64,000 bases of DNA, taken from positions 10,106 through 74,105 of the forward strand of contig CAZWDH010000001.1 in assembly GCA_964632865.1 (NCBI GenBank). The letters run 5' to 3'. The position numbers and the translations under genes were made by a program. Positions 4,808 through 62,866 of this stretch are shown piece by piece. How positions within the stretch are numbered: position 1 is the stretch's first letter; each line of letters begins with the position of its first letter. The notes under the pieces were generated by a model. It made no database searches, was not told the origin of the DNA, and saw only the letters and a list, made by a program, of their open reading frames with translations. This DNA comes from an uncultured Nitrospiraceae bacterium. Lineage in GTDB: Bacteria; Hydrogenedentota; Hydrogenedentia; Hydrogenedentales; SLHB01.

Positions 4808-5031
4808 GACAACAACCTCCTTTCGGCGCCGCCTCAAAAAGCGACGCCCTGATTTGCCTTATGCACCACCGGTCCTCTCGACGCCGTGCGGAAATCCGCG
4901 AGGCATCGAAAACCGGCGACGTGTTTCTCTACCCGGATGAGGTTGTCGAAAAAAGCCGCGCCGTTGGTTGTAACCTAAGCGGGCGCGTTGGAGAGGTGGC
5001 GTCATGCGTTAGTGTCCAACCTCTCGGCGGA

Positions 5032-6158: not shown

Positions 6159-6804
6159 AGCCGCAAATCTCCTCCAGCAAAGTGCTCATCTCGCCCGCCG
6201 CGTCTCTCGCTCGTCGTCCCATTCGCCATACCACGCTTCGCTGTCCCGGCGAATCCGCAATCGCCTCGCGCAGGCGCAGCACGGACCGACACAAGGGAAC
6301 GCCCAGGGCGGTCGCCGCGTGTCGCGACTCGCGCGTGAGCACAAAGCGTTCGCTGCGAAGTCGGTTCAGCAACAATCGTCCGGCGGGTAACCGCCCGGAT
6401 CGAACCAATTGAGCGCTTCGCAGGATGCGAAAACTCTGTGCCGCGGCCTCCAGTTCGGGCAGCGTCGCGCCGCAAGGCACGATCGCCATGTCAGCCACGA
6501 GCAACAGCGCCCGTGTAGCCTCGGCCAGGTTCGCGGGGCCGTCCCCGATGATGACCTCGTGCGTGTCGCGGAGTCGAGCGTATTGTTCAACAATCGCGTC
6601 GGCGTTGGCTTCGGTCACGACCGTGATCGCCGGTTCCGCGCTCTGCACCCATCGCGTGGAAGCGGCTTGGCCGTCGGCGTCGATAAGCGCTACCCGCGAT
6701 CCGCGTTCGTGAAACCACACCGCCAAGTGAACGGCCAACGTGGTCTTGCCGACTCCTCCCTTCTGGTTGACGACGGTGATGAACATGGTTCGAGCATGTC
6801 GCAA
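6130..6804 (-). CDS. parA: ParA/MinD-family partition ATPase.
   Basis: Deviant Walker A VVNQKGGVGKTTLAVHLA plus ALIDADGQAAST. The likely start is the internal Met at 6786. Confidence 0.9.
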   Translation of the reverse strand: MRHARTMFITVVNQKGGVGKTTLAVHLAVWFHERGSRVALIDADGQAASTRWVQSAEPAITVVTEANADAIVEQYARLRDTHEVIIGDGPANLAEATRALLLVADMAIVPCGATLPELEAAAQSFRILRSAQLVRSGRLPAGRLLLNRLRSERFVLTRESRHAATALGVPLCRSVLRLREAIADSPGQRSVVWRMGRRARDAAGEMSTLLEEICGYEHDTTLAQ

Positions 6805-7260
6805 GGCGGACCATCGCGCAAGGGGGCATTCGTGCGTGTCCGTTGGGTCTCAGGCGTTGCCGCACCGATGCTTGCCTGCGTGCTTGCATGCAAGCTGGCA
6901 AAGCGAATTCCATGTGATGCCGGCATGGTGGGAATCGAATTACTCGAATCCTGTTGCGCCATTCGGTGAATCGGATATGTTGGCCGAGAAAGGGTTCGCC
7001 GCGTTCCGCTCCGACAGCGATTGGCATTCCTGAGGAGCGGAACGGGGAAATTGGGAAGCGAAACACGAAGCGGACGATGCAGCGCTACAGACCCAAGCCT
7101 CGGGAGGCAACAGGCCCATTGTGCGTCGGACGTCACGACTTCGGCGTCGTTGGGGAACATCCTAGCACGTTGACGTGCGCTGTCAACTATCAAGTGACAG
7201 ACAATGGCACCTACGCGCTTATGGATCGCGTTCGACTCCCGATGAACCGAGTGGCTGTTT

Positions 7261-8898
7261 GTGGCTCGTGCAATCTTCGGGAGGCTTATGAATGCAAATC
7301 CAAGTGTTCCGGCATCGGCGCCGCGCGTCGTTACCAAACCCACGGGCGGGTTTCGCCCGATCACGGTGTTGCAAGTCTGCATGGCCTGGTGGGCCTATCG
7401 CACCGGCCTTCTGCCGCGGTATCTGGACTTCCGAGTCTACCTCGCGCTTCACGAAGTGGCCGAACGCAGGCTCGCCGCCTCGCGCATTCGCAAACGCAAG
7501 GGGCGAGGCGGCTTGATTCTCGTCCCAACACGCGGGGAACTGTTGAAGGAGCTGCGTGGCATGGTCGGGGGGACAAGCGATCGGCTGGTGCGCGGTGCGT
7601 TATCTCGATTGGAGTCCGTCGGGCTGGTGACGCTGACAAGTTCGCCTCCCATCTTCGCGACCGGCCCCGAGTCGCTGGCGAACGCGCCTGTTGAACTGGT
7701 CCAATTCCTAAACGGGCTCTCCCGAAAACCGGGCATGCGCGAACGTCGCCTGCCGGTCCCACGCCCGATGCTTCGCCTATTGGCCGTTTCGGCGACACCG
7801 TCGCTAGCGGCCACGGTTCTCGGATACCTGATGCTAAGCGTTTGGTGGCGGGGGAGCGAGTTGCACGTTCGCGGTGGCTGCACAACTGCATTCATTTCCG
7901 AGCGATTCGGCGTGGATGCGCGAAGCGTCAAGCGGGCGAGATCAGAACTCCGGCGAATCGGCTGGCTGGTTCCAGCGGATCCCAGTCGTTCGGCTGTGGC
8001 GGGCGCGATTCCAAATCTGCTGTGGACGAATGTACCAGAAAAGTGCCGCTCGCGGCCCCGCACAGTTTTGTCACCCCCTGTCGTCAATCGAGGCATCGGG
8101 ATGTCACCCCATACCATATCTATTCAACTCCCTTCGGGATCCAAGAACCAGCAACCTGCTGCCCGCCGTCAGCTGGCTGGGATTCCGAGGGGAAAGGAAG
8201 GAGGATCCCGACCGAGATTGTCGAATGTTCGACCCGCGGACCTGTCAAGCGTTGAGCGGATGGACGTGCTGTTCGAGGACGCCGTGTCGTCCGGCGTTGT
8301 GCAACGAACTTCCGCCGATCGCCTGCGGTTCTTCGCGGCTGCGGCTCGCGCCTCGCGGCTCGGGTCGCGTAATCCGTGCGGGTTCTTCGCGGCCGTTGTC
8401 CGTCGCGGACTCTGGCACGTAATCAGCCAGGCCGACGAAGATCGAGCGATCGAGCGGCTCAGAGCGCACCGAGCGACACCTCTCAGTCCACACGTCGCAC
8501 CCAGCCAACGGTCCGCCTCCACCCCGAACCCGATGCCGCATGGCCACCACCCCCCGACCAGCGCTGCGGAAGTCGAAGCGCTCGTCGTGTCGCTGGCCGT
8601 CCACTGTTCGATGGAAAAAGGCCCTCAAGTCGGTCGGAAATGGCAACATGACCAGTCTCCCGCTTGTGCGCCTGCGGCCCGGGTCCCGATCGGCCCTCGC
8701 TCGAAAAGACCGAGCGCAGCGAGCGGGCGAGGGGCGAGCGGGTGGGACGCAGCGCGCGCCTGCGGACGGTCTCCCGGAGGTTGGAGCTTAGACGACGGCG
8801 TTAGGCTTATAAGCGATGATCTCGTTGAAGGAGACCTCCGCTTGGGGCGGCGGCGTGAAACGTTCGCCTTGAGCGAGCTGGTGCGCCTAGTAGTGTGA
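7261..8898 (+). CDS. Putative replication-initiator-like winged-helix DNA-binding protein. The C-terminal half is Pro/Arg/Ala-rich low complexity, so a frameshift or over-extension is possible.
   Basis: Two wHTH-like segments (LILVPTRGELLKELRGMVGGTSDRLVRGALSRLESVGLV and TAFISERFGVDARSVKRARSELRRIGWLV). It is divergent from parA across a palindrome-rich intergenic region. Confidence 0.4.
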   Translation: MARAIFGRLMNANPSVPASAPRVVTKPTGGFRPITVLQVCMAWWAYRTGLLPRYLDFRVYLALHEVAERRLAASRIRKRKGRGGLILVPTRGELLKELRGMVGGTSDRLVRGALSRLESVGLVTLTSSPPIFATGPESLANAPVELVQFLNGLSRKPGMRERRLPVPRPMLRLLAVSATPSLAATVLGYLMLSVWWRGSELHVRGGCTTAFISERFGVDARSVKRARSELRRIGWLVPADPSRSAVAGAIPNLLWTNVPEKCRSRPRTVLSPPVVNRGIGMSPHTISIQLPSGSKNQQPAARRQLAGIPRGKEGGSRPRLSNVRPADLSSVERMDVLFEDAVSSGVVQRTSADRLRFFAAAARASRLGSRNPCGFFAAVVRRGLWHVISQADEDRAIERLRAHRATPLSPHVAPSQRSASTPNPMPHGHHPPTSAAEVEALVVSLAVHCSMEKGPQVGRKWQHDQSPACAPAARVPIGPRSKRPSAASGRGASGWDAARACGRSPGGWSLDDGVRLISDDLVEGDLRLGRRRETFALSELVRLVV

Positions 8899-45434: not shown

Positions 45435-45860
45435 TCACGGCCCAGTCAGCCGCGCGCCCAGTTCTTGAATCTCACGTCCACCGATCACACCGTCATTCTC
45501 CCAATCCGCCCGGCCACAGGCCGGTTCCAATTCCCCGCCGGACAAGCCGAAGCAGTTCTGAAACGCAGCCACGTCGGTAAGGTCCTTGTCCCCGTCGTCG
45601 TCGAAGTCGGCGAAGAGGTCGGGAAACGCGTAGATACGCCGGTCGAAGTCTCCGGCGACAATTCCATCAGCCTCGACGAAATCCTCTGACTGAATGAACG
45701 CCGCCGGATCGAGAGGAGAGAAACCATCGCGGAAGTGGACTTCCAGCCGCCCGCCGAGCGTGGTCTGTCCGGTCACATGCAGCACGTCGAACTCGCCGGG
45801 GTTCTGTCCGGCATATTCCATGATCAAGGCGCCGCCGGGGAGTATCTCCAAATCTCCGTC
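45435..45860. repeat. Conserved 3' block of the paralog family (copy 1 of 3; the others are ~48335-48760 and ~51204-51630).
   Basis: Long stretches are near-identical at nucleotide level, e.g. ccggttccaattc(c/t)ccgccggaca(a/g)gccgaagcagttctgaaacgc.gccacgtcgg, between 45515 and 51290. Confidence 0.8.
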
Positions 45861-48287
45861 CATGGTCAGCGTCCCGGGGGACAATCCCGGAGAGATGATC
45901 CCGCCCGCGCTAATATGCGGAACGGCAACGGTCCCCGTGCCCATCAGCGCGCCGTTGGGATTGACGACAATGTTTCCCCTTCCGTCGATCCTCGCTTCGA
46001 CGAGGGCGACGGACCCGCCGCCCGGTCCGCCGGCGGGATTGCCGATGGTCATCGTGCCGTTGATGGTCAAGATCGCGTTCGGATCCGCCAGCAGAATCTC
46101 GCCTCGCCCGGCGGCGACGCCCACCTGCGCGTTCCCATCGACCGTCAACGAGGTGAAGAAGGTCAAGGCGATAATTCCAGTTGCGGCAGGGGTGTCGCGG
46201 CCGACCACCAACGTGTCACAACGAACGCCCGACCCGGTAAGAACGTTGAGCAAGCCGATCCCCGTGGCGCCGACCGAAAGCGCTCCATTCACGCGAAGAA
46301 ACGCAGTGTCGCGCACGGTGACCGTTCCGCTGGGGTTGCCCCCGCCCAGCCCGATCAACATTTCACCGTGGTTCTCCATGACCGCCCCGGTGTCAAGCTG
46401 CACGATGCCCGGCGCCGCGATGCCGACTTGTGTTCGCCCGTTCACCGTCAGCCTCGAACCCGGCTGGGGTTGAGCCGGCGGGTCGGAAACCACGACAATC
46501 CCCTGCGCATCCGACCCGACGAATAGACCGTTGTTTAAGACGGCGTTCGCCCCGGATCGGATGTTGAGCTGTCCCGACGCCTCGATGCCTACGGTCGTCC
46601 CTACGCCCTGCCCGCCCACGGATCCGACGGTCAGCGTGGGACCACTTCCGCTTGCACCGCGCAGCGTAACATCCGCCGAGCCGGGTCGAATCTGACGGTG
46701 TCCAATGAACAGGCTGTCGGTGCTGACTCGACCGCCATTCTGAACCACAACCTCTTGAAGCTCCGTGGCGTTGACGAAAGTGCCCCCGGAAACACCCAGG
46801 ACGCCGTCTCCACCTTGCCCATCGACGATCACTTCGCCGCTGGGGTTGGCGCCGTATCCGCCCACGACGAGATCCTCGCCGACTGTGACCCACCCGCCGC
46901 GCTCCACACTGAGACGACCACTCGCCCCGTTCCCCACGATCAGGGACATGTCCACATCGAAGTCACCGTACGAGTCGGGCGTTGAGTCATCGCCGCGGAT
47001 CGTCACGGTGCCCGCGGCGGACTTCCCGATCATCGGCGTTACGAACGAGGCCGTCGTGGCTTTGAAGAAGCCCCTGTCGATTTCCAACGTCCCGGCGGTC
47101 GCATCCCCCACGACCATCACACCGGTCATGTCGAAGAAGGAACCGTCATCCCTCACCTGCACCACACCCGGACCGTTCCCCGAACCGATCGTAAGCGCTC
47201 CCGTGGAAGCCGTACCGCCCTCGAGCACCTCCACGCTCCCCTTCCCGATTCGGGCAGATTCCGAATTCGTCCACGAGCTCCCGCCCTTGACCTCCAGTTT
47301 GGAGTTCGCGGCTCCGGTTGCACCGACGCTTGCGTGAACCGAATTCAACGATGCACCGCTCGCCAAGCGGAGTTGGCCGCCCTGGAGGATCCTGAGCGAC
47401 TCGCGGGAAGGCGGGGGGCCGCCTCCACTCGTGACCGATGCCGGGCCGACGGAAGCGGTGGAGAACACCTGAGCGCTTCCGCTGAACTCGATCGGGCTGT
47501 TGATCACAAGCCATTCAGCGGCCGTGGCGCCCGAACCGCTGACCGGGATGAACGCTCCGTTCGGAAGGGCGAAATAGGCGATGTCGCTCCTCTGTCCGTT
47601 ATGGACGGGAGCGCAATAGGCGCCTTCGCCTGAGTCCCAGTTGTTCGAATCTTGATAGGTTCCCCCGCCTGGGTTGTTCCAGTAACGTTCGTCACTGGTG
47701 ACCGTCGGCACGCATGTGACGGTCAATGTGCAGTCCACCGAGCCGGAGGAATCCATGCCATACGCGGCGCAGTTCAAGGCATAACTGGGATCGCCGTTAG
47801 GTTCTCCCGTGTCACTATCATAGTTGGGAGTGATGGGCGTGACGGTCACGACTCCCTCCTGGGTCGTCTTGTGGGCCCCGGTGGGCGTACAGAACACGTC
47901 GCCGCCCACAACGCTGGGGTCGACATACACGGAAACCTCGGCGACATGATGCCAGAAGTTCAGCTCCGCGGGATGCACACTCGCATGCGCTGTGATCGTG
48001 TAACCGGTAGGAGTCGTGGTGACGCTGAAGCTAGCTTCGGGCCCTGCACAATGGACCCACGGCCGCTTGGGGTCTTCAACATGGCATAGGCCGAAACACT
48101 CTGCCTCTCCCGTCAAATCTCCGATGTTTCCTACCGATTCGCTGCAAATCCATTGAGTCTGCGCGAACGCCAGCGGGTTGATCCTGAAGTCCTCCAGATG
48201 TCCATCGAGGCAATCCGCCCGGACCTTGCCGGCGATGAGCAACAACGACAGAACCATGAGGCATCCGTCTCGGATCAAGCTCGACAT
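45435..48287 (-). CDS. Large secreted protein, paralog 1: signal peptide, autotransporter-associated beta-strand (PATR)-like repeats and a C-terminal dockerin-like EF-hand pair.
   Basis: N-terminal MSSLIRDGCLMVLSLLLIAG; repeated GG..L...G/TIG.G.G.V blocks. C-terminal FADFDDDGDKDLTDVAAFQNCFG...ADWENDGVIGGREIQELGARLTGP. Confidence 0.78.
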   Translation of the reverse strand: MSSLIRDGCLMVLSLLLIAGKVRADCLDGHLEDFRINPLAFAQTQWICSESVGNIGDLTGEAECFGLCHVEDPKRPWVHCAGPEASFSVTTTPTGYTITAHASVHPAELNFWHHVAEVSVYVDPSVVGGDVFCTPTGAHKTTQEGVVTVTPITPNYDSDTGEPNGDPSYALNCAAYGMDSSGSVDCTLTVTCVPTVTSDERYWNNPGGGTYQDSNNWDSGEGAYCAPVHNGQRSDIAYFALPNGAFIPVSGSGATAAEWLVINSPIEFSGSAQVFSTASVGPASVTSGGGPPPSRESLRILQGGQLRLASGASLNSVHASVGATGAANSKLEVKGGSSWTNSESARIGKGSVEVLEGGTASTGALTIGSGNGPGVVQVRDDGSFFDMTGVMVVGDATAGTLEIDRGFFKATTASFVTPMIGKSAAGTVTIRGDDSTPDSYGDFDVDMSLIVGNGASGRLSVERGGWVTVGEDLVVGGYGANPSGEVIVDGQGGDGVLGVSGGTFVNATELQEVVVQNGGRVSTDSLFIGHRQIRPGSADVTLRGASGSGPTLTVGSVGGQGVGTTVGIEASGQLNIRSGANAVLNNGLFVGSDAQGIVVVSDPPAQPQPGSRLTVNGRTQVGIAAPGIVQLDTGAVMENHGEMLIGLGGGNPSGTVTVRDTAFLRVNGALSVGATGIGLLNVLTGSGVRCDTLVVGRDTPAATGIIALTFFTSLTVDGNAQVGVAAGRGEILLADPNAILTINGTMTIGNPAGGPGGGSVALVEARIDGRGNIVVNPNGALMGTGTVAVPHISAGGIISPGLSPGTLTMDGDLEILPGGALIMEYAGQNPGEFDVLHVTGQTTLGGRLEVHFRDGFSPLDPAAFIQSEDFVEADGIVAGDFDRRIYAFPDLFADFDDDGDKDLTDVAAFQNCFGLSGGELEPACGRADWENDGVIGGREIQELGARLTGP

Positions 48288-48334
48288 AAACCTCTCCCCT
48301 CTCTCGGGCGTGTCGCCTTTATGAACACGGCGGC

Positions 48335-51157
48335 TTACCGCGGTCCGCTGAGTCGGGCCGTCAGTTCGCGTACCTCTATTTCGTTGAGAACGCCGTTATC
48401 CTCCCAATCGGCTCGGGCACAAGCGAGTTCCAATGCCGCACCCGACAACCCGAAGCAATTTTGGAACGCGGCCACGTCAAAAAAGTCCTTGTCGCCGTCG
48501 TCGTCGAAGTCCGCGAAGATGTCGGGGAAGGCGTAGATGCGCTGGTCGTAGTCGCCCATGATGACCCCATCGGCCTCGACGAAATCTTGTGACTGAACGA
48601 ATGCCACCGGATCATCTGGCGAAAAGCCGTCGCGGAAGTGAATCTCCAACCGTCCGCCAAGCGTGGTTTGTCCCGTCACGTGCAAGACGTCGAATTCGCC
48701 GGGATTCAGTCCGGCATATTCGATCACGACCACTCCGCCGGGAAGGATGTCCAAATCACCGTCGATGGTGAGCGTGCCGGGTGAAAGACCCGGGGAGATG
48801 TACCCACCGGCCGAAACGTGCGGGACGGCCACCGTCCCCGTCCCGGTCAGGCTGCCGTTCTTATTGACCACGATGTTCCCGGTCCCGTCGATCAAAGCGT
48901 CCACGAGCGCGACGGCGCCACCGCCGGGACCGCCGCCGGGACTGCCGATGGTCATCGTGCCGTTGATCTCAAGTCTTCCGCTCGGATCGGCGAGCAGAAT
49001 CTCGCCCCGACCGGCGCCCATACCGACCTGCGCGTTCCCATACACCGTCAAATGCGAAAAGCCAGGATTCACCGAAACATTGGGAACGAACGATGCCACG
49101 ATGATTCCCGTCGCTCCGAACGTGTTGCCGCCCACGAGCAGGGTGTCGCAAGTAACGTGCGAGGGAAACATTCCCGGCTCATCGACAATGTTGAGCAGCC
49201 CGATCCCCGACGCCCCCACGGCGAGTGTCCCGTGGATCCATAGGTGCGATCCGGAGTTCAGGTTGACCGATCCGCTGGGATTGTCGCCGCCCAGCCCGAT
49301 CTTCAGATCCCCGTGGGTTTCCAGGAACGCGTCGTGGTCAAGCTGCACGATGCCCGGAGCGCCAATGCCGACCTGCGTTTCGCCGTTCACCGTCAGCCCT
49401 GTGGCCGGACCCGGAGGGTTGTTCAGCCCCGAAACCATCACAATCCCCTGCGCTCCCTCCCCCACGTGCAGTCCATTGTACAGTTCCGCTCGCGCCGCGG
49501 ACTGAAGGTTGAGCTGTCCCGGCACGACCTCGCCCACAAAAGTTCCTGCCCCCCCTCCGCCGGCAATTAATCCCACGGTCAGCGTGGGATAGTTCCCGAC
49601 GGGGCCCCGAAGCGTGACATCCGCCGTCCCAGGCCGAATCTGACTATTCCCGATGAAAAGCTCCTTGGTGCTGAACTCACCGCCGTTCTGAACGAGAACT
49701 TCCTGCAACTCCGTGGCGTTGACGAAGGTTCCCCTATGAACATCGAGGGCGGCGCCCCCGCCCTGACCGTCCACCACTACCTCCCCGCCGCCGGCGCCGG
49801 CGCCATAGCCGCCCACCACAAGGTCCGGGTTGATGTTGGCTTGTCCCCCGCGCATGATGTTAAGTCGCCCGCTCGCCCCGTCGCCGACAATCAGGGAGTA
49901 ATCTGCCACCTGAAAATATCCGGACGAGTCGACGTGGGAGTCATCGCCGCGGACCGTCACCGTGCCGGGGGCCGACTTGCCGATCCGCGGGGTCACGGTC
50001 ACCGGGGTCACGATCAGGGAGCCCTTGTCGAGTTCCACGGTTCCGGCGGTCGTGTCCCCCACGTAGAGCACGTCATTCACGTCGAACCTGGAACCAACGC
50101 CGGTCACGCGAACCGATGCCGCACCATTCCCCGAGCCGATAGTCAGGGATTTGGTAGAGCCCGTGCCGCCGTCCAGCACATCCAAAATTCCCCGCCCGAT
50201 CTTGGCGGACTCCGTGTTGGTCCAACGCCCTCCTTTGACTTCCAGCATGGAGTTCGTCGCCCCGCTTGCCCCGACGCTTGCGTGAACCGAATCCAGGGAG
50301 GCCCCGCTGGCCAGGCGGAGCTGCCCGCCAGTCCGAATAACTAGCGATGGGTTGGTCGCTGACGTCGAGAACACTTGCCCACTTCCGCTGAACGCGATCA
50401 GGCTGTTCTGCACGATCCACTGCCCAGCCGTTGCAAGGGGGCCCGCCGTCACCGGAATGTGGTTTGCTGTTGCCAATTGGAACATCGCTGAATCGCTCCG
50501 TTGGGTGTCATGGACCGGAGCGCAGTAACCTGAAAACGACGACGCCCAGTTGGTCGCATCTTCGTATGCGCCGCCGCTTGGGCTTGACCAGAACCGGTAT
50601 CCGCTGGACACGGTGGGAGTACAGGTAACTGTTTGCGTGCACGCAACCGCACCAGGAACAGTACGACCGCCAGCCCAGCAAAAGAAGGGAGTTCCGGGCC
50701 CCGTCGTAACCGTCTCGACGCCTTCGATTACAGTTTTACTAACAGTGTCGTACGTGCAGGCCACTTCACCGCCGACCCGTTGAAAGCTAATGTAGGCATT
50801 GCTCAAACCTGCACTCTGAAGGACACCCAGCGAGGGATTCACCGCGGCGCTCACCGTAATCGTGTATCCGGTCGGTGAAGTACTCACGCTGTAAGTCGTT
50901 TCCGGACCCGGGCAAGGCACGTATTCGTCATCCCCCAGGCACAGGTTGGGACACTCGGCCCCACCGGAATTGCTCAGCATGACCGGCCTTTCGTCGCAGT
51001 ACGGTAAAGGTGCAACACCAAAATCCCGGTGCGCCCAGATGAAAACCTCGAAACCGAAGTTCTCTACGTGTCCGTCGAGGCAATCCGCGCGGCCCCTGCC
51101 GGCGACAACAAGCAGCGTTAAGGCGACGAGACGCGCGTTTCGATTCCAAATCCTCAT
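48335..51157 (-). CDS. Large secreted protein, paralog 2, with the same architecture. The true start is probably Met 51157 (MRIWNRNARLVALTLLVVAG).
   Basis: Shares the N-terminal ADCLDGHxExF region, the PATR-like repeats and a nearly identical C-terminal ~140 aa with paralogs 1 and 3. Confidence 0.78.
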   Translation of the reverse strand: MRIWNRNARLVALTLLVVAGRGRADCLDGHVENFGFEVFIWAHRDFGVAPLPYCDERPVMLSNSGGAECPNLCLGDDEYVPCPGPETTYSVSTSPTGYTITVSAAVNPSLGVLQSAGLSNAYISFQRVGGEVACTYDTVSKTVIEGVETVTTGPGTPFFCWAGGRTVPGAVACTQTVTCTPTVSSGYRFWSSPSGGAYEDATNWASSFSGYCAPVHDTQRSDSAMFQLATANHIPVTAGPLATAGQWIVQNSLIAFSGSGQVFSTSATNPSLVIRTGGQLRLASGASLDSVHASVGASGATNSMLEVKGGRWTNTESAKIGRGILDVLDGGTGSTKSLTIGSGNGAASVRVTGVGSRFDVNDVLYVGDTTAGTVELDKGSLIVTPVTVTPRIGKSAPGTVTVRGDDSHVDSSGYFQVADYSLIVGDGASGRLNIMRGGQANINPDLVVGGYGAGAGGGEVVVDGQGGGAALDVHRGTFVNATELQEVLVQNGGEFSTKELFIGNSQIRPGTADVTLRGPVGNYPTLTVGLIAGGGGAGTFVGEVVPGQLNLQSAARAELYNGLHVGEGAQGIVMVSGLNNPPGPATGLTVNGETQVGIGAPGIVQLDHDAFLETHGDLKIGLGGDNPSGSVNLNSGSHLWIHGTLAVGASGIGLLNIVDEPGMFPSHVTCDTLLVGGNTFGATGIIVASFVPNVSVNPGFSHLTVYGNAQVGMGAGRGEILLADPSGRLEINGTMTIGSPGGGPGGGAVALVDALIDGTGNIVVNKNGSLTGTGTVAVPHVSAGGYISPGLSPGTLTIDGDLDILPGGVVVIEYAGLNPGEFDVLHVTGQTTLGGRLEIHFRDGFSPDDPVAFVQSQDFVEADGVIMGDYDQRIYAFPDIFADFDDDGDKDFFDVAAFQNCFGLSGAALELACARADWEDNGVLNEIEVRELTARLSGPR

Positions 51158-51203
51158 ACATTTCTCCTCGCTCCCGGACATGCCGCGCTATCCATTCGAC
51201 GGC

Positions 51204-54158
51204 TTATCGCGGTCCGCTGAGCCGGGCCGTCAGTTCGCGTACCTCTACCTCGTTGAGAACGCCGTTATCCTCCCAATCTGCGCGGCTACAAGCCGGTTCC
51301 AATTCTCCGCCGGACAGGCCGAAGCAGTTCTGAAACGCGGCCACGTCGGCGAGGTCTTTGTCCCCGTCGTCGTCGAAGTCGGCGAAGATATCCGGAAAGG
51401 CGTAGATGCGCTGGTCGTAGTCACCGGTGACAATCCCCTCCGACTCGACGAAATCCTGCGACTGAATGAACGCCGTCGGGTCATCCGGCGAAAAGCCGCC
51501 GCGGAAGTGAACTTCCAGCCGTCCGCCGAGGCTCGTTTGACCGGTGATGTGCAACACGTCGAACTCGCCGGGATTCGGGCCGTGATGCTCAAGGATCAGC
51601 ACCCCGCCGGGCAACAGTTCCAGGTCGCCGTCGATGTTAAGCGTTCTCAGCCCGCCCGGAGCGGCGACCGTAGATTGGGTTGCCCCCTGCAATCGCGACG
51701 GAGTCGATACGGAAATATTCGGACTGAGAGTGCCTTGGTTCACCAAGCCAAAAAACCCCACAGCAAGAGTGCCCGTGCCGGCGATCACGCCGTTGGGGGT
51801 GATGTACGTCCCGTCGGTCGCAACCAGGGCGTCGTTTTGCATATCCAACTGGCCGCTGCCGCCCCCGACTTGGCCCACCTGCAAGATTTCCAGGGCGCGC
51901 ACAAATCCACCGTCCACGGTGAGCGAACCGGTTCCGTTCGTGCCGGCCTGCCCCCCAATCTCGATGTTGCGGCAGCGTAGCAGGCCGCCTTCGTCAAGGG
52001 ACACGCCGCCATCAAACTCGCGACCAATGGCGCACAGACCGGCCTGCGGATCCACCACCTCCAAGAAAGTCGGATTCGAAGTAACCGCAGTGCCCCACAA
52101 GATCGCCGCGCCGACGCCCTCCTTGCCGATGATCAAATCGCCGTCGATGTCGCCCTTGGCCGCGTTCCAAAAGGCCAAGAGGTTGGCGCTGCCCGCGCCG
52201 CCGACGAACACGCTGCCCAGCACGTCCAGGTCTGAGGGGTCTCCGTTTGAATGGCGACCGTCGATGCGGAGTTCGCCATTCTTGATTTGAACGTTTTGGC
52301 TGACATACAGGTCGCCGCCATTCAGCACCTCTATGTAGCCAAAGCCGGTCTGCCCAATGGTCAAATTGCCCAAGAGCGCCCACAGGGATGCCTGACTAGT
52401 GCCCGCGCCGACGCCTTCAATCGTCACGTTCGAGTCTCCGCTGATGATGCCGAAGCTAACGAACGCATCGTTCGAGTTCACGCGCCCGCCGCTCTCGATG
52501 GTCAGGGTGCCGAGGGCGCCATAGCCCACGGCAATGTTGCCGGTGTCCCATAGCGAACCATCTCCGCCCACTACCGCTGTGCCGGGTGCCGTTGGCAGCA
52601 AGCCGCCCAGACGCGCCTCGGCGCTGGTCAGATGACCGCCATTGGCCACAAACAGGTCGCCCGCCCCTTCGTCGCCGATAGACAGCCGCCCCGTGCCGTT
52701 CAGACTGGTGCCGCTGTTGAACACCTGCAAATGGGCGATGGATGGATTTGTGGGTGGATCCCCGCCGATGATGGCGTGGATCATATTCCCCGCACCCGAA
52801 GTGATCTTGACCGTCCCCCCATCGTTGACGGTCAGCGCCGGTTCCGTCACCGAATCGTCCAGTAGATTCAAAGACAAATTGACGAAATCGACCGTGTTGG
52901 TGCCGGATATGATTGCTCGACGCACCGGAAAGGTGGCCGCCGGCGTGGCTGCGGTGAATGCGGCGCTGGCATCTACCGTGTATTGCCCACTCAGGGCAAA
53001 GACGACGGTATCGCCATCGCCGGGGTCGCCCTGCGGGTCCCAGTTCGTAGTCACGTGCCACGAGCCGCCGCTCGCGTTAATCCAGCGATACGCCTGTGGC
53101 TTGAGCAGGAAGGCACGACCCTGGCCGTTGAAATTCCCCTCACCGACGATCTGGCCCTTGCTATTGATGGCGTGCGCTTTAGTCAATTCCCAACCTGAAC
53201 CCGGCGGGATCAAGTTGTTGAGGTCCTGCATCTGGCCGTTCTCCCACAGGAAGGCGCGAAGCCGACCGGCGGGAGTGAGGATGTACGAGTGGCCGACTAC
53301 CTGGCCCTGGTCGTTGATGTCCAATGCAACGTTGAATATCTGCCCTCCCAGGGTGCCCAGGTCTTGCATGCCGCCGTTCTGCCACAAGAAGGGGCGTTGT
53401 GTGTCACCATTTATAAACGATTCTCCCACCACCTGGACGGCATTGTTAATCGCATACGCCTGACTGTTCGGACCTCCCAGGGTGCCCAGGTCTTGCATCG
53501 ATCCACCCTGCCACAGGAAGGCATAGAATGGCTCACGATGAACGCGCTCGGAATGGCCGACTACTTGGCCAGCGTCGTTGATGTCGGTAGCTAGGCTACT
53601 GTTCCCTCCCAGGGTGCCCAGGTCCTGCATCGAGCCGTTCTGCCACAAGAAGGCGCGCATCTGCTGTGTGCTGTTGAGTGACCAACCCGCTACTTGCCCG
53701 GAACTATTTACCCCATATGCCTCGCCGCTATTACCGCCGAACGTGCCCAGGTCTTGCATGTCGCCGTTCTGCCACAAGAAGGGGCGTCCCCCTCCGCTGC
53801 TGGTAAGTGCCATCCCAACAATTTGGCCGGCATCGTTGATATCGTTTGCCCGACTCATTTGCCCACCCAGCGTTCCCAGGTCGGTCATCACCCCGTCTTC
53901 CCACAGAAAAGCATGGGTATTTCCGCCGGAAGTGGCTGACCAGCCGACCACCTGACCCTCGTCGTTAATACCGTAGGCTCCGCTGGACGACCCTCCCAGC
54001 GTGCCCAGGTCGGTGATGGCGTAGCGCGGACCGGCAGGCGGGTTAGCCTGGAGTGCCGTTTGCCCGTTTGTCGCCAAGGGAGATGCTCCCAGTTGCGCTA
54101 CGCCAAACAGGGATAGCAACAGTGCAATCAACGCGACCGAAAAAAGTGATTGTTTCAT
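51204..54158 (-). CDS. Large secreted protein, paralog 3: eight or more N-terminal HAF-family extracellular repeats, then PATR-like repeats and the dockerin-like C-terminus.
   Basis: Repeats D(L/M)GTLGG..S.A..IN..GQVVG.S.....HAFLW..G.MQDLGTLGG; signal peptide MKQSLFSVALIALLLSLFGVAQLGA. Confidence 0.8.
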   Translation of the reverse strand: MKQSLFSVALIALLLSLFGVAQLGASPLATNGQTALQANPPAGPRYAITDLGTLGGSSSGAYGINDEGQVVGWSATSGGNTHAFLWEDGVMTDLGTLGGQMSRANDINDAGQIVGMALTSSGGGRPFLWQNGDMQDLGTFGGNSGEAYGVNSSGQVAGWSLNSTQQMRAFLWQNGSMQDLGTLGGNSSLATDINDAGQVVGHSERVHREPFYAFLWQGGSMQDLGTLGGPNSQAYAINNAVQVVGESFINGDTQRPFLWQNGGMQDLGTLGGQIFNVALDINDQGQVVGHSYILTPAGRLRAFLWENGQMQDLNNLIPPGSGWELTKAHAINSKGQIVGEGNFNGQGRAFLLKPQAYRWINASGGSWHVTTNWDPQGDPGDGDTVVFALSGQYTVDASAAFTAATPAATFPVRRAIISGTNTVDFVNLSLNLLDDSVTEPALTVNDGGTVKITSGAGNMIHAIIGGDPPTNPSIAHLQVFNSGTSLNGTGRLSIGDEGAGDLFVANGGHLTSAEARLGGLLPTAPGTAVVGGDGSLWDTGNIAVGYGALGTLTIESGGRVNSNDAFVSFGIISGDSNVTIEGVGAGTSQASLWALLGNLTIGQTGFGYIEVLNGGDLYVSQNVQIKNGELRIDGRHSNGDPSDLDVLGSVFVGGAGSANLLAFWNAAKGDIDGDLIIGKEGVGAAILWGTAVTSNPTFLEVVDPQAGLCAIGREFDGGVSLDEGGLLRCRNIEIGGQAGTNGTGSLTVDGGFVRALEILQVGQVGGGSGQLDMQNDALVATDGTYITPNGVIAGTGTLAVGFFGLVNQGTLSPNISVSTPSRLQGATQSTVAAPGGLRTLNIDGDLELLPGGVLILEHHGPNPGEFDVLHITGQTSLGGRLEVHFRGGFSPDDPTAFIQSQDFVESEGIVTGDYDQRIYAFPDIFADFDDDGDKDLADVAAFQNCFGLSGGELEPACSRADWEDNGVLNEVEVRELTARLSGPR

Positions 54159-56437: not shown

Positions 56438-58435
56438 ATGTCCACGGCGACTCCGTTCTTCCGACGGCATGCAGCTGCACTGGTGGCGACCGTGCTGGTT
56501 GCGAGCTGTTACGCATTCACCCGCCTTCCCGCACCGTCTGCTGCGGAGCGAGCCGCGCTGGCAGTTCGATTCCGGTTCACGCGGTCGGCGCTCCCTGAGT
56601 TGATCACGTCGTCGCAGAAATCCGTTCGGACGGTTCATCCAAGTTTGACCCGGATATCCTCATGGATATCCGCAACCGGCGCCGCTGCCGCTCTTGAAGA
56701 CCTCGATGGGGATGGACTTCCCAACGACCTATCCTGGGTCGATCCACGAGTCGACGAGGTAATCATTACGCCGGTTCCGGAAACCGGTCAGCGCTTCCAG
56801 CCATTCGTTTTGAACCCGGCTCCTCTTCCCTATGACCCGGGCACGATGGCGCCGATGGGCAGCATGACCGCGGATCTAAACGAAGATGGCCTCATGGACA
56901 TTCTTGCATATTACTGGGGGCGCACTCCGGTTGCGTTCTTGAGAAAGGGAGTTTCTCCCGAGATCGCAGGAGCGGCGACCTCAGGGGGTCTGTCGGCAAC
57001 GGCGTTCGTTCCATGTGAAGTCGCCTCTAGCATTCAGCGTTGGTACACCAGCAGTGCCACCCTCGCCGACCTCGATGGCGATGGACATGTCGATATCGTG
57101 ATCGGCAACTACTTCCAGGACGGCGCTCGCATTCTCGATGCAAAAGCCTCCGGGGTCGAAATGATGCACGATACCAAGTCGAAGTCCTTTAATGGCGGCT
57201 GGAACAGGTTACTGCTTTGGAAGGCAGCAACGGCGGGCGGAGCACCCAGCGTGCAGTTTACCGACGTGGAGGACGTATTGGACGAGGATGTCGCTCGTGC
57301 ATGGACGCTCGCCGTCGGCGCGGCCGATATCGATGGCGACCTGCTCCCGGAAATCTACTTTGCTAATGATTTCGGTCCCGATCGTCTCCTCCACAATCGT
57401 TCGACCCCCGGCAGCCTTCGTTTTGGCGTACTGGAGGGAAAAGGCACGCTCGGCACTCCAGCTTCATTCGTCTTAGGTCATGACTCGTTCAAGGGTATGG
57501 GAGTGGATTTTGGAGATGTAAACGGGGATGGGTTCCTCGATATTTATGTAAGCAACATCGCCAGGGAGTTCGGATTGCAGGAAAGTCACTTCTTGTGGCT
57601 GTGTACGGGCGAGTTTGACAAGATGAAAGATGGCGCCGCGCCCTACGTGCAGGCAAGCGAATCCCTGGGGTTGTCCCGGAGTGGATGGGGATGGGAATCG
57701 CGACTAGCGGACTTCGATAATGATGGGACCTTGGAAGCGATTCAGGCCGTGGGCTTCATCAAGGGCCAGAACAATCGCTGGGCTGCATTGCAGTCGCTGG
57801 TTACGGCCAATGATCAAATGATGCACAATCCCAAGCTTTGGCCCCGGTTTCAACCGGGCGACGATCTCAGCGGTTACGATCCCAACGCCTTCTTTGTTCG
57901 GGCCAGCGACGGGCGCTACGTCGATGTCGCAAGTGAAATCGATCTTGACCAACCGATGGTAAGTCGCGGCATCGCCGTCGCCGACGTGGACGCAGATGGT
58001 GACCTGGACTTCGCACTCGCCAACCAATGGGAACAATCCTATTTCTATCGCAATGATAGCCCCCAGCAGAACGCGTTTCTTGCAATGCGGCTTTTGCTGC
58101 CGCTCGGAAGCCAAAAGCTCCCTGCTGTGACCGTTTACCGGGGGCGTCGCGGACCTGACTTGGAGGGACGCGCGGCTATCGGCGCCGTAGCGACGGTGCA
58201 CCTTCCCGACGGCCGACGCCTTGTCGGTCATGTTGACGGCGGAAACGGACATTCAGGCAAGCGAAGCCAAGATTTGCATTTTGGGCTCGGTCAACTGGCA
58301 GATGAGGCAGAGCTTCAAGTGGATCTGCGCTGGCGTGACGCTGACGGTCGCGATCACCGTGAAACGGTGCACGTGAAGCCCGGATGGCAGACCATTCAAC
58401 TCGGATGTCAGCACAGCGGAGGAGAAACATCATGA
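56438..58435 (+). CDS. FG-GAP/VCBS-repeat protein with a C-terminal ASPIC/UnbV domain (CRTAC1-like).
   Basis: Repeated DLDGDGxxD Ca-binding loops (ADLDGDGHVDIV, ADIDGDLLPE, DVNGDGFLDIY, DVDADGDLDF). C-terminal GNGHSGKRSQDLHFGLG. Confidence 0.8.
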   Translation: MSTATPFFRRHAAALVATVLVASCYAFTRLPAPSAAERAALAVRFRFTRSALPELITSSQKSVRTVHPSLTRISSWISATGAAAALEDLDGDGLPNDLSWVDPRVDEVIITPVPETGQRFQPFVLNPAPLPYDPGTMAPMGSMTADLNEDGLMDILAYYWGRTPVAFLRKGVSPEIAGAATSGGLSATAFVPCEVASSIQRWYTSSATLADLDGDGHVDIVIGNYFQDGARILDAKASGVEMMHDTKSKSFNGGWNRLLLWKAATAGGAPSVQFTDVEDVLDEDVARAWTLAVGAADIDGDLLPEIYFANDFGPDRLLHNRSTPGSLRFGVLEGKGTLGTPASFVLGHDSFKGMGVDFGDVNGDGFLDIYVSNIAREFGLQESHFLWLCTGEFDKMKDGAAPYVQASESLGLSRSGWGWESRLADFDNDGTLEAIQAVGFIKGQNNRWAALQSLVTANDQMMHNPKLWPRFQPGDDLSGYDPNAFFVRASDGRYVDVASEIDLDQPMVSRGIAVADVDADGDLDFALANQWEQSYFYRNDSPQQNAFLAMRLLLPLGSQKLPAVTVYRGRRGPDLEGRAAIGAVATVHLPDGRRLVGHVDGGNGHSGKRSQDLHFGLGQLADEAELQVDLRWRDADGRDHRETVHVKPGWQTIQLGCQHSGGETS

Positions 58436-59965: not shown

Positions 59966-60116
59966 GTGGCCCGACAATCTGCCGAACAATGGCAAAGGAA
60001 AGGAGCAGCATGTACAGCAGGCGATTCAGGATACTTCCCCTAGGCTTGGCGACGTGTCGGTTTTTAGGGCGGTGCCCTCGTGCGCGGCGGAGGTTCCGTG
60101 AAAAGGAGAAAGGGTT

Positions 60117-62366
60117 ATGAAGGCTAAATGGTTGTTGAGTATTTCGATGGTTGTCGCGCTGACAGGCGGACTCGCGGTCCACGCGGCGGATATCGGCACG
60201 GGCTTTAGCTATCAGGGGTTCCTCGAAAAACCTGCCGGAACTCCGGTGGACGGCGTTTCGTGCGACTTCCGCTTCGGGCTCTGGGACGCGGCCGCGGGGG
60301 GGAATCAACAAGGGGTTTCGCCGCAAACGAAAATCGGCGTTGCGGTGACCGGTGGAGTGTTCACCGTGCCCGACTTGGATTTCGGCGCAGGGGCCATCGA
60401 CGGCGCCGCGCGGTGGCTGGAGATCGAGGTCCAGTGCCCGCCGGACGCGGGGTTCACGTTGCTTTCGCCGCGCGTGGAGCTGACTCCCGCGCCGCACGCC
60501 ATTCGGGCGTGGGAAGGCGTCGGGCCGCCCAACGCGTTGGAAGTGGACACGGCGACGGGCTTCGTGGGCATCGGGACGGACTCGCCGGTCTACCCGTTGC
60601 ACTCCTCCACGGCCGGCCCGTCTGACCGCGCGGTTTACGGCGAGGCCACCGCCGCTACCGGTACCACCTACGGCGTGTTCGGCCGGAGCGTCAGCCCGGA
60701 CGGGGCCGGCGTTCGCGGCGACTCCGTCGCCATCAGTGGGACCGCCTATGGCGGTCGCTTCCAGACCGGGAGCCCGGACGGCCGCGCCGTCTACGGCGAG
60801 GCCATCGCCGCCGGCGGCACCGCCTACGGTGTATTCGGCCGGAGCAACAGCACGTCCGGTCGTGGCGTGTACGGCGAGGCCACTGCCGGTACCGGCAGCA
60901 CTTATGGCGGTTGGTTCCAAAGCCTTAGCGCGGACGGGGCCGGCGTCTTTGGCAGCTCCGGCGCCATCAGTGGGACCGCCTACGGCGGTCGCTTCCAGAC
61001 CGGGAGCCCGGACGGGCGCGCCGTCTACGGCGAGGCCATCGCCGGTACGGGCACCGCCTACGGCGTGTACGGCCGGAGCGACAGCACGGACGGGCGTGGC
61101 GTCTACGGCGAGGCCACCGCCGCTACTGGCGGCACCTATGGCGGTTCCTTCCGGAGCGACAGCACCGAGGGGCGCGCCGTCCAGGGTTGGGCTACTGCCG
61201 CCAGCGGCAACACCATCGGCGGTCGTTTCACGAGTGACAGCACAGCCGGATACGGCGTCTGGGCCGATGCCGATGCCAGTACCGGCACCACCTACGGCGT
61301 GGTTGGCCGGAGCGCCAGCACGGACGGGTACGGCGTGTTCGGGTATGCGAGCGCGGCGAACGGGACGACCCGCGGCGGCTACTTTAAGAGCCAGAGCACG
61401 GACGGATTCGGCGTCTACGGTTTGGCCACCGCCATTACGGGCACCAACTACGGCGTGTACGGCCGGAGCGACAGCACCGAGGGGCGCGCCGTCCAGGGTT
61501 GGGCTACTGCCGCCAGCGGCAACACCATCGGCGGTCGTTTCACGAGTGACAGCACATCCGGGTACGGCGTCTGGGCCGATGCCGATGCCAGTACCGGCAC
61601 CACCTACGGCGTGGTCGGCCGGTGCAATAGCCCGGACGGGTTCGCTGGCTACTTCACCGGTCCAGCCGGGAGCAGAAACTACTTCGCACAAAGCGTGGGC
61701 ATAGGAACCAATGCGCCCGACGTCACTCTCCACGTCGAGGACGGTGCCGACGCCTCGTTGAGCAGTGGGTCCGGCTACCTCGTCCTGGGACCGGTCTCCG
61801 GTTCGAATCTCGTCCTCGACAACAACGAGATCCTCGCCCGCAACAACGGCGCCGGGGCGAGCCTCTTCATCAACTACGAAGGCGGAAACGTGGGGATCCT
61901 ACGGAACTCCGCGTCGCACCCGCTGCATGTGGGCAACGACAGCAGCACCGGTAACGGCGCCCATCTCACCGCCGGCGGAATCTGGACCAACGGCAGCGAT
62001 CGGAACTCCAAGGAAAACTTCAAACCGTTCGACGCGGGGGCCATCCTGGAAAAAGTAGCGGAACTGCCGCTAACTGTTTGGAATTACATCGGAGAGACCG
62101 ACGGCGTGCATCACATCGGCCCCATGGCCCAGGACTTCCACGCGGCGTTCGGCTTGGGCCACGACGAGCGCTACATCACCACCATCGACGCCGACGGTGT
62201 GGCTCTCGCCGCAATCCAAGGCCTCTACCAGATCGTGCAGGAAAAGGACTGCGAGATCGAAGAGTTGAAGGCGAAGGCGGAATCCGTCGAACGGCTCGAG
62301 GAGAAGGTTGCGGCGCTGGAGGCGTTGGTGCACAAGCTCGCCGCCCAGAACGGAGGTGGGCGATGA
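60117..62366 (+). CDS. Secreted tail-fibre-like protein: signal peptide, ~14 Gly-rich ~40-aa beta-solenoid-like repeats, and a C-terminal peptidase-S74 intramolecular-chaperone auto-processing domain.
   Basis: MKAKWLLSISMVVALTGGLAVHA. Repeats GRAVYGEATA.TGT.YGV.GRS.S.DG.GV.G. C-terminal SDRNSKENFKPFDAGAILEKVAELPLTVWNYIGETDGVHHIGPMAQDFHAAFGLG...IDADGVALAAIQGL, then a coiled coil. Confidence 0.8.
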   Translation: MKAKWLLSISMVVALTGGLAVHAADIGTGFSYQGFLEKPAGTPVDGVSCDFRFGLWDAAAGGNQQGVSPQTKIGVAVTGGVFTVPDLDFGAGAIDGAARWLEIEVQCPPDAGFTLLSPRVELTPAPHAIRAWEGVGPPNALEVDTATGFVGIGTDSPVYPLHSSTAGPSDRAVYGEATAATGTTYGVFGRSVSPDGAGVRGDSVAISGTAYGGRFQTGSPDGRAVYGEAIAAGGTAYGVFGRSNSTSGRGVYGEATAGTGSTYGGWFQSLSADGAGVFGSSGAISGTAYGGRFQTGSPDGRAVYGEAIAGTGTAYGVYGRSDSTDGRGVYGEATAATGGTYGGSFRSDSTEGRAVQGWATAASGNTIGGRFTSDSTAGYGVWADADASTGTTYGVVGRSASTDGYGVFGYASAANGTTRGGYFKSQSTDGFGVYGLATAITGTNYGVYGRSDSTEGRAVQGWATAASGNTIGGRFTSDSTSGYGVWADADASTGTTYGVVGRCNSPDGFAGYFTGPAGSRNYFAQSVGIGTNAPDVTLHVEDGADASLSSGSGYLVLGPVSGSNLVLDNNEILARNNGAGASLFINYEGGNVGILRNSASHPLHVGNDSSTGNGAHLTAGGIWTNGSDRNSKENFKPFDAGAILEKVAELPLTVWNYIGETDGVHHIGPMAQDFHAAFGLGHDERYITTIDADGVALAAIQGLYQIVQEKDCEIEELKAKAESVERLEEKVAALEALVHKLAAQNGGGR
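61171..61650. repeat. Internal tandem duplication (~318-bp unit, 61171-61330 and 61489-61650) inside the Gly-rich repeat gene.
   Basis: gcgccgtccagggttgggctactgccgccagcggcaacaccatcggcggtcgtttcacgagtgacagcaca... occurs twice, nearly identical. Confidence 0.8.
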
Positions 62367-62728
62367 ACCGGCACGCCGAACATCGAGAGCAGAATGCTTC
62401 AGAATGGGAACCTCCAGCAAACGCGGGCGGTCGGGTCTGGTTCAAGTGCGAGCAGGCTTCTGAATTGGCAATTGGAAATCGACGCTTCGCAGTTCCCTTT
62501 GCTCTTCGTTGTTCAACGTTCGTCATTCTATGGGCGGTCGCCACGGCGAACGCTCAGAGTGGTGGCGCGTATGTCATCAGGAAGAGTACGATGGATTCCG
62601 GTGGTGACCGAGTCGTCGGCGGCGAATTCGTGCTGACCGGCACCGTGGGACAACCCGACGCCGCCGAGCTGACCGGCAGTGGGTACACGCTCGCAGGCGG
62701 GTTCTGGTCGCCGGCCGACGCCGCCTAG
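62363..62728 (+). pseudogene. Small secreted protein whose IPTL-CTERM sorting anchor is separated from it by an in-frame amber codon (TAG 62726-62728).
   Basis: Signal-like FAVPFALRCSTFVILWAVATANAQ, then ...GYTLAGGFWSPADAA-TAG-LIPAVSEWGIAVLMLLVTIAATLVLSTRAV... (IPTL-CTERM consensus IPTLSEWG plus TM plus basic residues). The start overlaps the upstream stop (ATGA). Confidence 0.55.
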
Positions 62729-62866
62729 CTGATCCCGGCGGTTTCCGAGTGGGGAATCGCGGTACTGATGCTGTTGGTCACCATCGCTGCGACATTGGTC
62801 TTGTCGACGCGCGCGGTCGGATCGGTTTTTGCGGCTGGGGATCACGGAAACGCGAAAAAGCAGTGA
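62729..62866 (+). other. Detached IPTL-CTERM-like sorting domain coding segment (46 codons), in frame immediately after the amber stop.
   Basis: LIPAVSEWGIAVLMLLVTIAATLVLSTRAVGSVFAAGDHGNAKKQ-stop. Confidence 0.55.

Follow-up and report, generated by a model that had tools for sequence, protein, structure and literature searches.

A putative Sec-exported MAT-type fibre protein with a Peptidase_S74 domain, and its recurrent GGFW neighbour, in an uncultured Hydrogenedentales bacterium

Introduction

The Peptidase_S74 (S74) domain is known chiefly from phage tail fibres and spikes. Its occurrence at the end of a protein with a signal peptide raises the question of whether such a gene is the remnant of a virus or whether the bacterium makes the protein for its own surface. 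The question is posed here by an open reading frame (ORF) at 60117-62366 (+) of a 64,000-nucleotide (nt) stretch, hereafter the window, of contig CAZWDH010000001.1 (positions 10,106 to 74,105, forward strand; assembly GCA_964632865.1), from an uncultured bacterium labelled Nitrospiraceae and placed by GTDB lineage in the Hydrogenedentales. The ORF was confirmed, and its product comprises 749 amino acids (aa). An earlier note on this DNA, prepared from the sequence alone, offered three readings of the protein: a self-trimerising surface fibre or adhesin, an S-layer-like component, or a remnant of a tailocin.

The first of these readings is supported, at the level of sequence, by a match to the mosaic adhesive trimer (MAT) fibres of Bdellovibrio (Caulton et al. 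2024, Nat Microbiol, PMC10769870). That the bacterium itself makes this protein and exports it through Sec as a fibre of the MAT type has, in our estimate, a probability of roughly 78%. The main additions of this analysis are a conserved neighbouring gene, referred to as GGFW, and the size and breadth of the unannotated fibre family to which the protein belongs.

Domain organization of the fibre protein

The following features were assigned, all on the forward strand:

60117-60185 (+): Sec signal peptide, aa 1-23, MKAKWLLSISMVVALTGGLAVHA followed by AD; assigned by inspection of the sequence
60186-60512 (+): conserved N-terminal beta-sandwich domain (N-domain), aa 24-132, FSYQG...GVFTV..LDFG...RWLEIEV...LSPRVELTPAPHA; AlphaFold2 and profile search
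60561-60602 (+): capping loop 1, aa 149-162, FVGIGTDSPVYPLH, where the N-domain meets the shaft; regular expression and family survey
60627-61640 (+): shaft, aa 171-508, 13 tandem 26-aa repeats rich in Gly, Ala, Thr, Ser and Tyr, consensus approximately RGVYGEATAATGTTYGVFGRSDSTDG; TRF and repeat register
61641-61994 (+): pre-cleavage tip region, aa 509-626, holding capping loops 2 and 3
61692-61733 (+): capping loop 2, aa 526-539, SVGIGTNAPDVTLH, within the tip region
61887-61928 (+): capping loop 3, aa 591-604, NVGILRNSASHPLH, within the tip region
61995-62012 (+): putative catalytic motif S627-D-R-N-S-K632; conservation and alignment to 3GUD and 7DC3
61995-62366 (+): Peptidase_S74/intramolecular chaperone domain with C-terminal helix and stop codon, aa 627-749; PF13884, profile and Foldseek
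62181-62348 (+): C-terminal helix, aa 689-744; AlphaFold2 model

The signal peptide proposed in the earlier note is canonical for the Sec pathway: by inspection, a basic n-region with K2 and K4 and a hydrophobic core precede a cleavage site between VHA and AD after aa 23, and the N-termini of homologues are equivalent. Peptidase_S74 was the sole match in a Pfam scan of the whole protein, and NCBIfam returned none. The same architecture characterizes the family, whose members combine a signal peptide, an N-domain of ~110 aa (FTYQGxL...GLFTVxLDFG...RWLEIxV...PRxxLTxxPYA), 26-aa repeats, and either an S74 domain with a coiled coil or an unrelated C-terminus.

Capping loops and relation to MAT fibres

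MAT proteins are defined by a signal peptide, a ~130-aa conserved domain rich in beta structure, a trimeric fibre with capping loops, and a tip of either the S74 (SDxxxK) or a non-S74 type (PMC10769870). For one of them, Bd3182, self-cleavage at S782 has been demonstrated, and MAT proteins have been shown on the surface of the predator (PMC10769870). The protein described here resembles Bd3182 (8ONC/8OJN/8ONB) in the order of signal peptide, conserved beta-rich domain (alike in position and similar in size) and presumed long fibre. Both have capping loops of the VGIGTxxPxxxLH type, two of which lie just ahead of the cleavage site (predicted here), and both end in an S74 domain with the SDxxxK motif.

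The capping-loop motif x-V-G-I/V-G/N-pi-x-x-P-x-x-x-L-H was searched as a regular expression, in a register shifted by one residue relative to the motif printed in the main text of the MAT paper; it occurs three times in the fibre and in 37 of 44 homologues, and its register fits the published alignment, which covers MAT proteins and also MyRF (Supplementary Fig. 18, PMC10769870). When a 31-aa query around loop 2 was run against the whole PDB, the only matches were two Bdellovibrio MAT proteins, namely Bd2133 (8OND, E=3.6e-4, several copies) and Bd3182 (8OJN/8ONB/8ONC). Loops 2 and 3 bracket the last ~100 residues ahead of the cleavage serine, as in Bd3182.

The mosaic character of the Bdellovibrio family also recurs, with S74 and non-S74 tips and multiple, often tandem copies outside prophages in both families. 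Among the relatives of the present protein, three (P0022, P0025 and P0029) join the same N-domain and repeats to a different, non-S74 C-terminal domain, and four others (P0018, P0024, P0026 and P0035) carry the N-domain and the S74 domain with no 26-aa repeats at all; genes with the N-domain only and with N-domain plus S74 were found in tandem at related loci. Certain features set the present protein apart. It is shorter, with 749 aa against ~1,000 aa for a Bdellovibrio MAT, its shaft is built from 13 regular 26-aa Gly-rich repeats, and its host, unlike Bdellovibrio, is not a known predator. It is furthermore accompanied by the conserved adjacent GGFW gene, and none is mentioned in the MAT paper (PMC10769870). 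In Table S3 of that paper, MAT-like proteins are also given for further taxa, among them Ca. Uabimicrobium amorphum, a planctomycete, so that a planctomycete-like member of this type is not new in kind. Beyond this paper, nothing relevant was found in the literature on non-phage S74 proteins in these phyla.

Several points weigh against assigning the protein to the MAT type. Sequence similarity to the Bdellovibrio MATs was detected only in the capping loops and the S74 domain. Trimerisation, cleavage, surface display and adhesive function are all inferred, and the mechanism proposed below gives no route across an outer membrane. A trimeric beta-helix would rest on analogy, as the monomer model is of moderate confidence for the shaft and tip (pLDDT 50-80). 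Capping loops apart, no solved structure in the PDB could be matched to the tip region by sequence.

Repeat shaft, tip and N-terminal domain

Gly-rich repeats had been recognized in the earlier note as ~14 units of 40 aa; the repeats exist, but the real unit is 26 aa (78 nt), present in 13 copies over aa 171-508 (nt 60627-61640) in perfect register and with no insertions or deletions. TRF reports a period of 78 nt and 12.5 copies, and autocorrelation likewise gives a 26-aa period. Identity at a lag of 26 is 40%, seven positions are invariant in every repeat, and the unit resembles two halves of 13 aa. Recent duplications involve blocks of 78 and 104 aa, with block identities of 92% and 81%, and aa 353-404 are 92% identical to aa 457-508. 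Because relatives with common ends contain anything from 0 to 16 repeats, the shafts are exchangeable and extensible units. In the AlphaFold2 monomer model, the shaft forms regular strand pairs (pLDDT 55-80), which do not establish the beta-solenoid suggested in the earlier note. By analogy with MAT fibres, an intertwined trimer is more likely than a monomeric beta-solenoid, and the tip is proposed to be a trimeric beta-helix that would become exposed after release of the S74 domain. The G+C content at 60001-62000 is 67.7%, compared with ~61% in the remaining window; this rise need not mean foreign origin, because it coincides with the Gly/Ala-rich repeat array and its GGC and GCC codons.

The N-domain is modelled with high confidence (pLDDT >90 for aa 28-122) as an all-beta fold. 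No Pfam or NCBIfam model matches it. A profile search returned 59,172 representative clusters, 27,976 of them at E<=1e-10, and in family members the domain is found nearly always directly after the signal peptide, starting at residue ~25-45. It therefore defines a very large family without a Pfam model. It agrees with the MAT N-terminal domain in position, similar size and all-beta content, a likeness by description only, and the MAT domain was likewise reported without a close PDB homologue (PMC10769870). The N-domain is proposed to be the cell-proximal docking domain of the fibre. In the PDB, its profile met a single weak echo (E=4.7e-4), in the Ig-like repeats that form the stalk of the adhesin Cpe0147 (4MKM). 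The Ig-like repeat of Cpe0147 is known for intramolecular ester cross-links. An invariant Gln is present in the N-domain (Q33 of FSYQG); it lies outside the region aligned to the Cpe0147 repeat, and no conserved partner residue is evident for it, so that an intramolecular cross-link through Q33 is pure speculation.

The composition of the shaft also bears on whether the protein might be a structural surface layer or matrix, such as an S-layer-like coat or an extracellular or biofilm scaffold, rather than a ligand-specific adhesin, with the S74 domain serving only to build a very stable trimer. The shaft is low in charge and rich in Gly, Ala, Ser and Thr (23% Gly), the family is very abundant with common tandem paralogues, and no recognizable lectin or enzymatic tip domain was found with Pfam, all of which would suit a structural role. 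Against it, the architecture fits fibres that were shown to be discrete surface adhesins in Bdellovibrio (PMC10769870), and the paired-loop tip is the counterpart of the region in which Bd3182 and phage spikes have their ligand-binding cleft (PMC10769870). Nothing spoke positively for the S-layer-like component suggested in the earlier note: Pfam and NCBIfam, whose models a novel lattice protein could escape, revealed neither an SLH or S-layer domain nor any other that forms lattices. We regard a structural layer as unlikely, and a MAT-type adhesive fibre as the preferred interpretation.

S74 domain and predicted self-cleavage

On sequence grounds, the C-terminal intramolecular chaperone domain recognized in the earlier note is a genuine S74 domain. 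The Pfam model PF13884 is matched by aa 627-678 (43.4 bits; gathering cutoff 22) and PHROG 8003, a 'virion structural protein', by aa 618-725, and the previously quoted motifs SDRNSKENF, LPLTVWNY, HHIGPMAQDF and IDADGVALAAIQGL are all found in the protein. A C-terminal profile built from 20 homologues retrieved the MyRF ICA (7DC3, E=1e-13) from the PDB, along with the phage fibre chaperones 6F45, 8JOV, 3GUD and 8HQZ. With Foldseek, the AlphaFold2 model had 7DC3 as its top PDB match (TM(target) 0.56, but E=0.05), and numerous viral S74 proteins matched in BFVD. Single-sequence PDB searches with the whole protein, the C-terminal 130 aa or the tip region yielded nothing useful; the profile and the short loop query alone succeeded. 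In the monomer model, helices and strands at aa 640-678 are followed by a long helix at aa 689-744 (pLDDT 64-76).

The domain also looks catalytically competent from its sequence. The Ser-Lys dyad is present as Ser627 and Lys632, both conserved in at least 90% of 44 S74-bearing homologues and invariant in a 20-sequence C-terminal alignment, and the motif SDRNSK has the canonical SDxxxK spacing at the start of the domain. The profile aligns both residues with the MyRF ICA (7DC3) and with the phage GA-1 chaperone (3GUD), which after release starts with SDERHK, its initial Ser matching Ser627. Neither of the outcomes named as refuting in the earlier note, a lack of the catalytic Ser/Lys or a generic coiled coil and nothing more, is thus borne out. 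By analogy, autocleavage is predicted between Gly626 and Ser627.

Alternatively, the S74 domain might be kept uncleaved as a trimerisation and folding module, with the coiled coil staying on the mature protein. Cleavage is a prediction in the present case, and some domains of other taxa were termed 'S74-like' in the MAT paper (PMC10769870), which leaves some room for this arrangement. However, the canonical spacing and the (near) invariance of Ser627 and Lys632 across homologues argue for selection on catalysis, and that paper cites systems in which experiments showed this motif to support cleavage (PMC10769870). We consider retention of the domain slightly less probable still than a structural layer, and processing of a MAT-type precursor remains the favoured course.

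Comparison with other S74 proteins and trimeric adhesins

The phage fibre and spike chaperones, represented by the K1F endosialidase (3GW6), the GA-1 neck appendage (3GUD) and T5 pb1 (4UW8/8HQZ), have a homologous S74 domain with the Ser-Lys dyad, cleavage directly ahead of the Ser, and a preceding region expected to form a trimeric beta-helix. Phage fibres differ in lacking signal peptides, in having virion-attachment N-termini and in being encoded within tail gene modules, whereas everything upstream of the S74 domain in the present protein is of a cellular type and absent from the phage genomes searched. The MyRF ICA (7DC3) is both the best profile match and the best structural match, and MyRF also has an upstream capping-loop motif, RVGINTDRPDEALV; it represents a further case of the S74 module outside a virus. 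In contrast to the present protein, MyRF is a membrane-bound transcription factor from which cleavage frees a nuclear fragment, and it has neither the signal-peptide fibre architecture, nor the repeats, nor this type of N-domain.

Trimeric autotransporter adhesins of the YadA-like type resemble the present protein as trimeric surface fibres (a trimer being presumed here) with short Gly/Ala/Ser-rich repeats and coiled coils. This identity was rejected on finding no C-terminal beta-barrel translocator, YadA or Hep_Hag domain with Pfam. One relative of the fibre is labelled 'trimeric autotransporter adhesin' in one source.

Proposed mechanism of fibre assembly

If the chaperones of phage endosialidases and tail fibres, and Bd3182 of Bdellovibrio, are taken as models, assembly may proceed as follows. 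After Sec export, three chains would be brought into register at the C-terminus by the S74 domain together with its helical coiled coil. The S74 domain would then template the folding of the intertwined beta-helical tip (aa 509-626), working backwards from the C-terminus, and the shaft (aa 171-508) is probably templated likewise. Ser627, activated by Lys632, would cut the Gly626/Ser627 bond and free a chaperone fragment of 123 aa. The product would be a kinetically stable mature fibre of ~603 aa (aa 24-626), with the beta-helix that cleavage has exposed, flanked by two capping loops, as its distal tip. The N-terminal beta-sandwich (aa 24-132) may keep the fibre at the cell surface, and fibre length would be set by the 13 repeats of 26 aa, the number of which could vary through block duplication. 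As the C-terminus of the fibre would be a removable chaperone, anchoring would have to be N-terminal or through a partner.

Distribution, genomic context and the question of a phage origin

A homology search recovered at least 2,469 relatives, mostly from metagenome-assembled genomes of Planctomycetota/Phycisphaerales and Fimbriimonadales, some of them named 'tail fiber domain-containing protein'. In a scan of species-representative genomes, at least 454 loci carried this S74 subtype, spanning Planctomycetota, Verrucomicrobiota, Chloroflexota, Acidobacteriota, Rhodothermales, Nitrospirales and Proteobacteria. Fibre genes often stand in tandem, as arrays in which two to five paralogues with S74 or non-S74 ends are mixed (L001 10001-16528; L005, L008, L066, L079 and L081), and one GGFW gene usually lies at the end of the array; the window contains a single fibre copy. 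According to these scans, the fibre architecture described in Bdellovibrio in 2024 is found both here and in Planctomycetota, Verrucomicrobiota, Chloroflexota, Acidobacteriota and other groups, in hundreds of species altogether. The phage-derived S74 module for folding, trimerisation and self-cutting would accordingly be in routine use by free-living bacteria far beyond predators, and such fibres are likely to be major determinants of what poorly studied bacteria stick to, be it particles, algae, prey or each other.

This context also bears on the possibility that the gene is a prophage, tailocin or phage-tail-like relic, that is, a tail fibre gene left behind after decay of its structural module. 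The S74 domain is best known from phage fibres and spikes, and the match to PHROG 8003 extends over most of it. In a tblastn search against 50,697 phage genomes (INPHARED), phage proteins matched aa 627-714 at 37-45% identity, nearly all alignments beginning exactly at Ser627. Moreover, the left end of the window carries a module (2-8898) of mobile-element or plasmid-like maintenance genes, which makes it possible that the contig is an integrative element or a plasmid, and only putative the 'chromosomal' location given in the earlier note:

2-1018 (strand not stated): tyrosine integrase, at the left end of the window
1029-2801 (strand not stated): 589-aa ParB-N protein
3668-4837 (strand not stated): DUF932 protein
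6130-6804 (strand not stated): ParA-like ATPase

These genes are more than 50 kb from the fibre gene. As the earlier note had observed, phage structural genes are absent nearby: none for tail, baseplate, sheath, capsid or terminase was found among ~50 ORFs of the 64-kb window with Pfam and PHROGs, and PHROGs assigned no structural protein to the unannotated ORFs. The window genes are instead cellular, including those for qNor, ScdA/hemerythrin, P-type ATPases, RND efflux, cytochrome c peroxidase, an FG-GAP/ASPIC protein, a PAS protein and regulators. Apart from aa 627-714, the tblastn search gave just two weak matches at aa 564-611 and nothing N-terminal of aa 564, and neither the N-domain nor the repeats were found in INPHARED phages; an N-domain scan of IMG/VR was also negative, with patterns that were subfamily-specific. 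Across 82 related loci, no conserved phage neighbours occurred, the conserved neighbours being paralogous fibres and the GGFW gene. Virion proteins are assembled in the cytoplasm and have no need of a Sec signal peptide such as the present one, and the N-domain family of ~59,000 clusters is placed directly after signal peptides. Together, these observations have already largely refuted a relic, including the tailocin remnant of the earlier note, and we hold it to be very improbable compared with a cell-made MAT-type fibre.

The adjacent GGFW gene

Immediately downstream of the fibre gene lies a small ORF with the following features:

62465-62728 (+): small secreted GGFW ORF, with a TTG start at 62465 and a TAG stop at 62726-62728
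62555-62707 (+): 51-aa GGFW domain, with three GGxYxLxG units, TxGQPDA and GGFW
62729-62866 (+): in-frame continuation past the TAG, LIPAVSEWGIAVLMLLVTIAATLVLSTR... (LIPAVSEWGIAVLMLLVTIAATLV...), resembling an IPTL-CTERM sorting signal

A signal peptide, ending in ATANA before QS, precedes the 51-aa domain. An alternative ATG start at 62363 overlaps the TGA stop of the fibre gene as ATGA (cgATGAac, 62363-62366), and translational coupling of the two genes is therefore possible; the TTG start at 62465 yields a more conventional signal peptide than the ATG at 62363. The tail beyond the TAG scored below threshold against both IPTL-CTERM models, with 17.2 bits against a cutoff of 20.8 for PF18203 (E=0.005) and 16.4 against 20.5 for TIGR04174. 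The TAG between the domain and this tail may reflect a nonsense mutation or an error in the assembly, or else a genuine truncation by which the domain is cut off from its anchor.

Adjacency was assessed with local hidden Markov models (HMMs) for the N-domain, S74 and GGFW domains over the 82 related loci (L001-L085 series). These loci, the window among them, contained 53 GGFW ORFs in 47 of the 82, distributed over several phyla. For all 53, the closest fibre ORF is on the same strand, and in 50 cases a fibre ORF is no more than 600 nt away; 39 are downstream of the fibre and 10 upstream. The GGFW gene tracks the N-domain rather than the S74 domain: it was present at 45 of 66 loci with an N-domain and at 2 of 16 without one (odds ratio 15, Fisher p ~1e-4), loci that are not phylogenetically independent. 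In a reciprocal check that started from independently found GGFW proteins, one was flanked by two N-domain genes and one stood alone, and the pairing is therefore best described as frequent, not obligatory.

The GGFW family numbers at least 6,643 members, typically of 70-112 aa and all unnamed. No match was found in Pfam, NCBIfam, the PDB or the literature, and there were no relatives in IMG/VR. Members end in different C-terminal tails: a YLP-box in Chloroflexota, a domain of ~75 aa ending in FYRLxKP in Verrucomicrobiota, a dockerin-like tail in Phycisphaerae, and a C-terminal domain resembling that of the type IX secretion system (T9SS) in one Rhodothermales locus. From their sequences, these tails look like lineage-specific surface-sorting signals. 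AlphaFold2, applied to the isolated GGFW domain, gave an uninformative model (pLDDT 50). Two candidate interpretations were set aside. Recurrent NCBIfam matches to PamT, a CPR pilus protein, were too weak (E ~0.03-0.05, 13 bits against a cutoff of 240). An apparent fusion of GGFW and fibre in locus L020, suggested by single-linkage clustering that merged the two kinds of protein, proved to be a frame artefact by domain-level HMM analysis.

The same pair occurs in a cultured organism, on plasmid pHAU01 of Herpetosiphon aurantiacus DSM 785 (CP000876.1, L084). There, Haur_5099 is a fibre gene with N-domain and S74, and a GGFW ORF at ~8040-8195 (HMM E=5e-17) lies in an unannotated 485-nt gap between Haur_5099 and Haur_5100.

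The surface element bound by the MAT N-domain was stated to be unknown in the MAT paper (PMC10769870). Because this element was left open there and the fibre would have no anchor of its own after removal of the S74 domain, the GGFW protein is a reasonable candidate for anchoring or co-assembly; that its presence tracks the N-domain likewise suggests that it may be the anchor or assembly partner of the fibre. We therefore tentatively propose, as a possibility well short of an even chance, that fibre and GGFW form a conserved two-gene module in which the GGFW protein would receive the MAT-type N-domain at the surface or act as an obligatory co-assembly partner. If so, GGFW would be a candidate for what holds MAT fibres on the cell, and fibre attachment would become directly testable.

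Neighbouring genes and additional observations

Promoter and terminator scans gave nothing above background. Elsewhere in the window, three consecutive ORFs of ~950 aa at 45435-54158 (-) have signal-peptide-like N-termini and are mutual paralogues; the first two are 58% identical, and their C-terminal halves are common to the third. They are unrelated to the fibre, with a single Pfam match (DUF3466) and no PHROG matches.

Genes for FG-GAP/integrin-like beta-propeller proteins recur near fibre genes. In the window, one is located at 56438-58435 (+), 1.7 kb upstream of the fibre gene. In Herpetosiphon, the gene after the GGFW ORF encodes an FG-GAP 'integrin alpha beta-propellor' protein (L084 8453-10099) with a YLP-box-like motif at its end, and four other loci show the same proximity, as at 13624-15159 of L070. 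This proximity may be a coincidence in secretome-rich regions. Among the relatives, P0082 bears the annotation of an FG-GAP-like repeat protein while matching the fibre as well.

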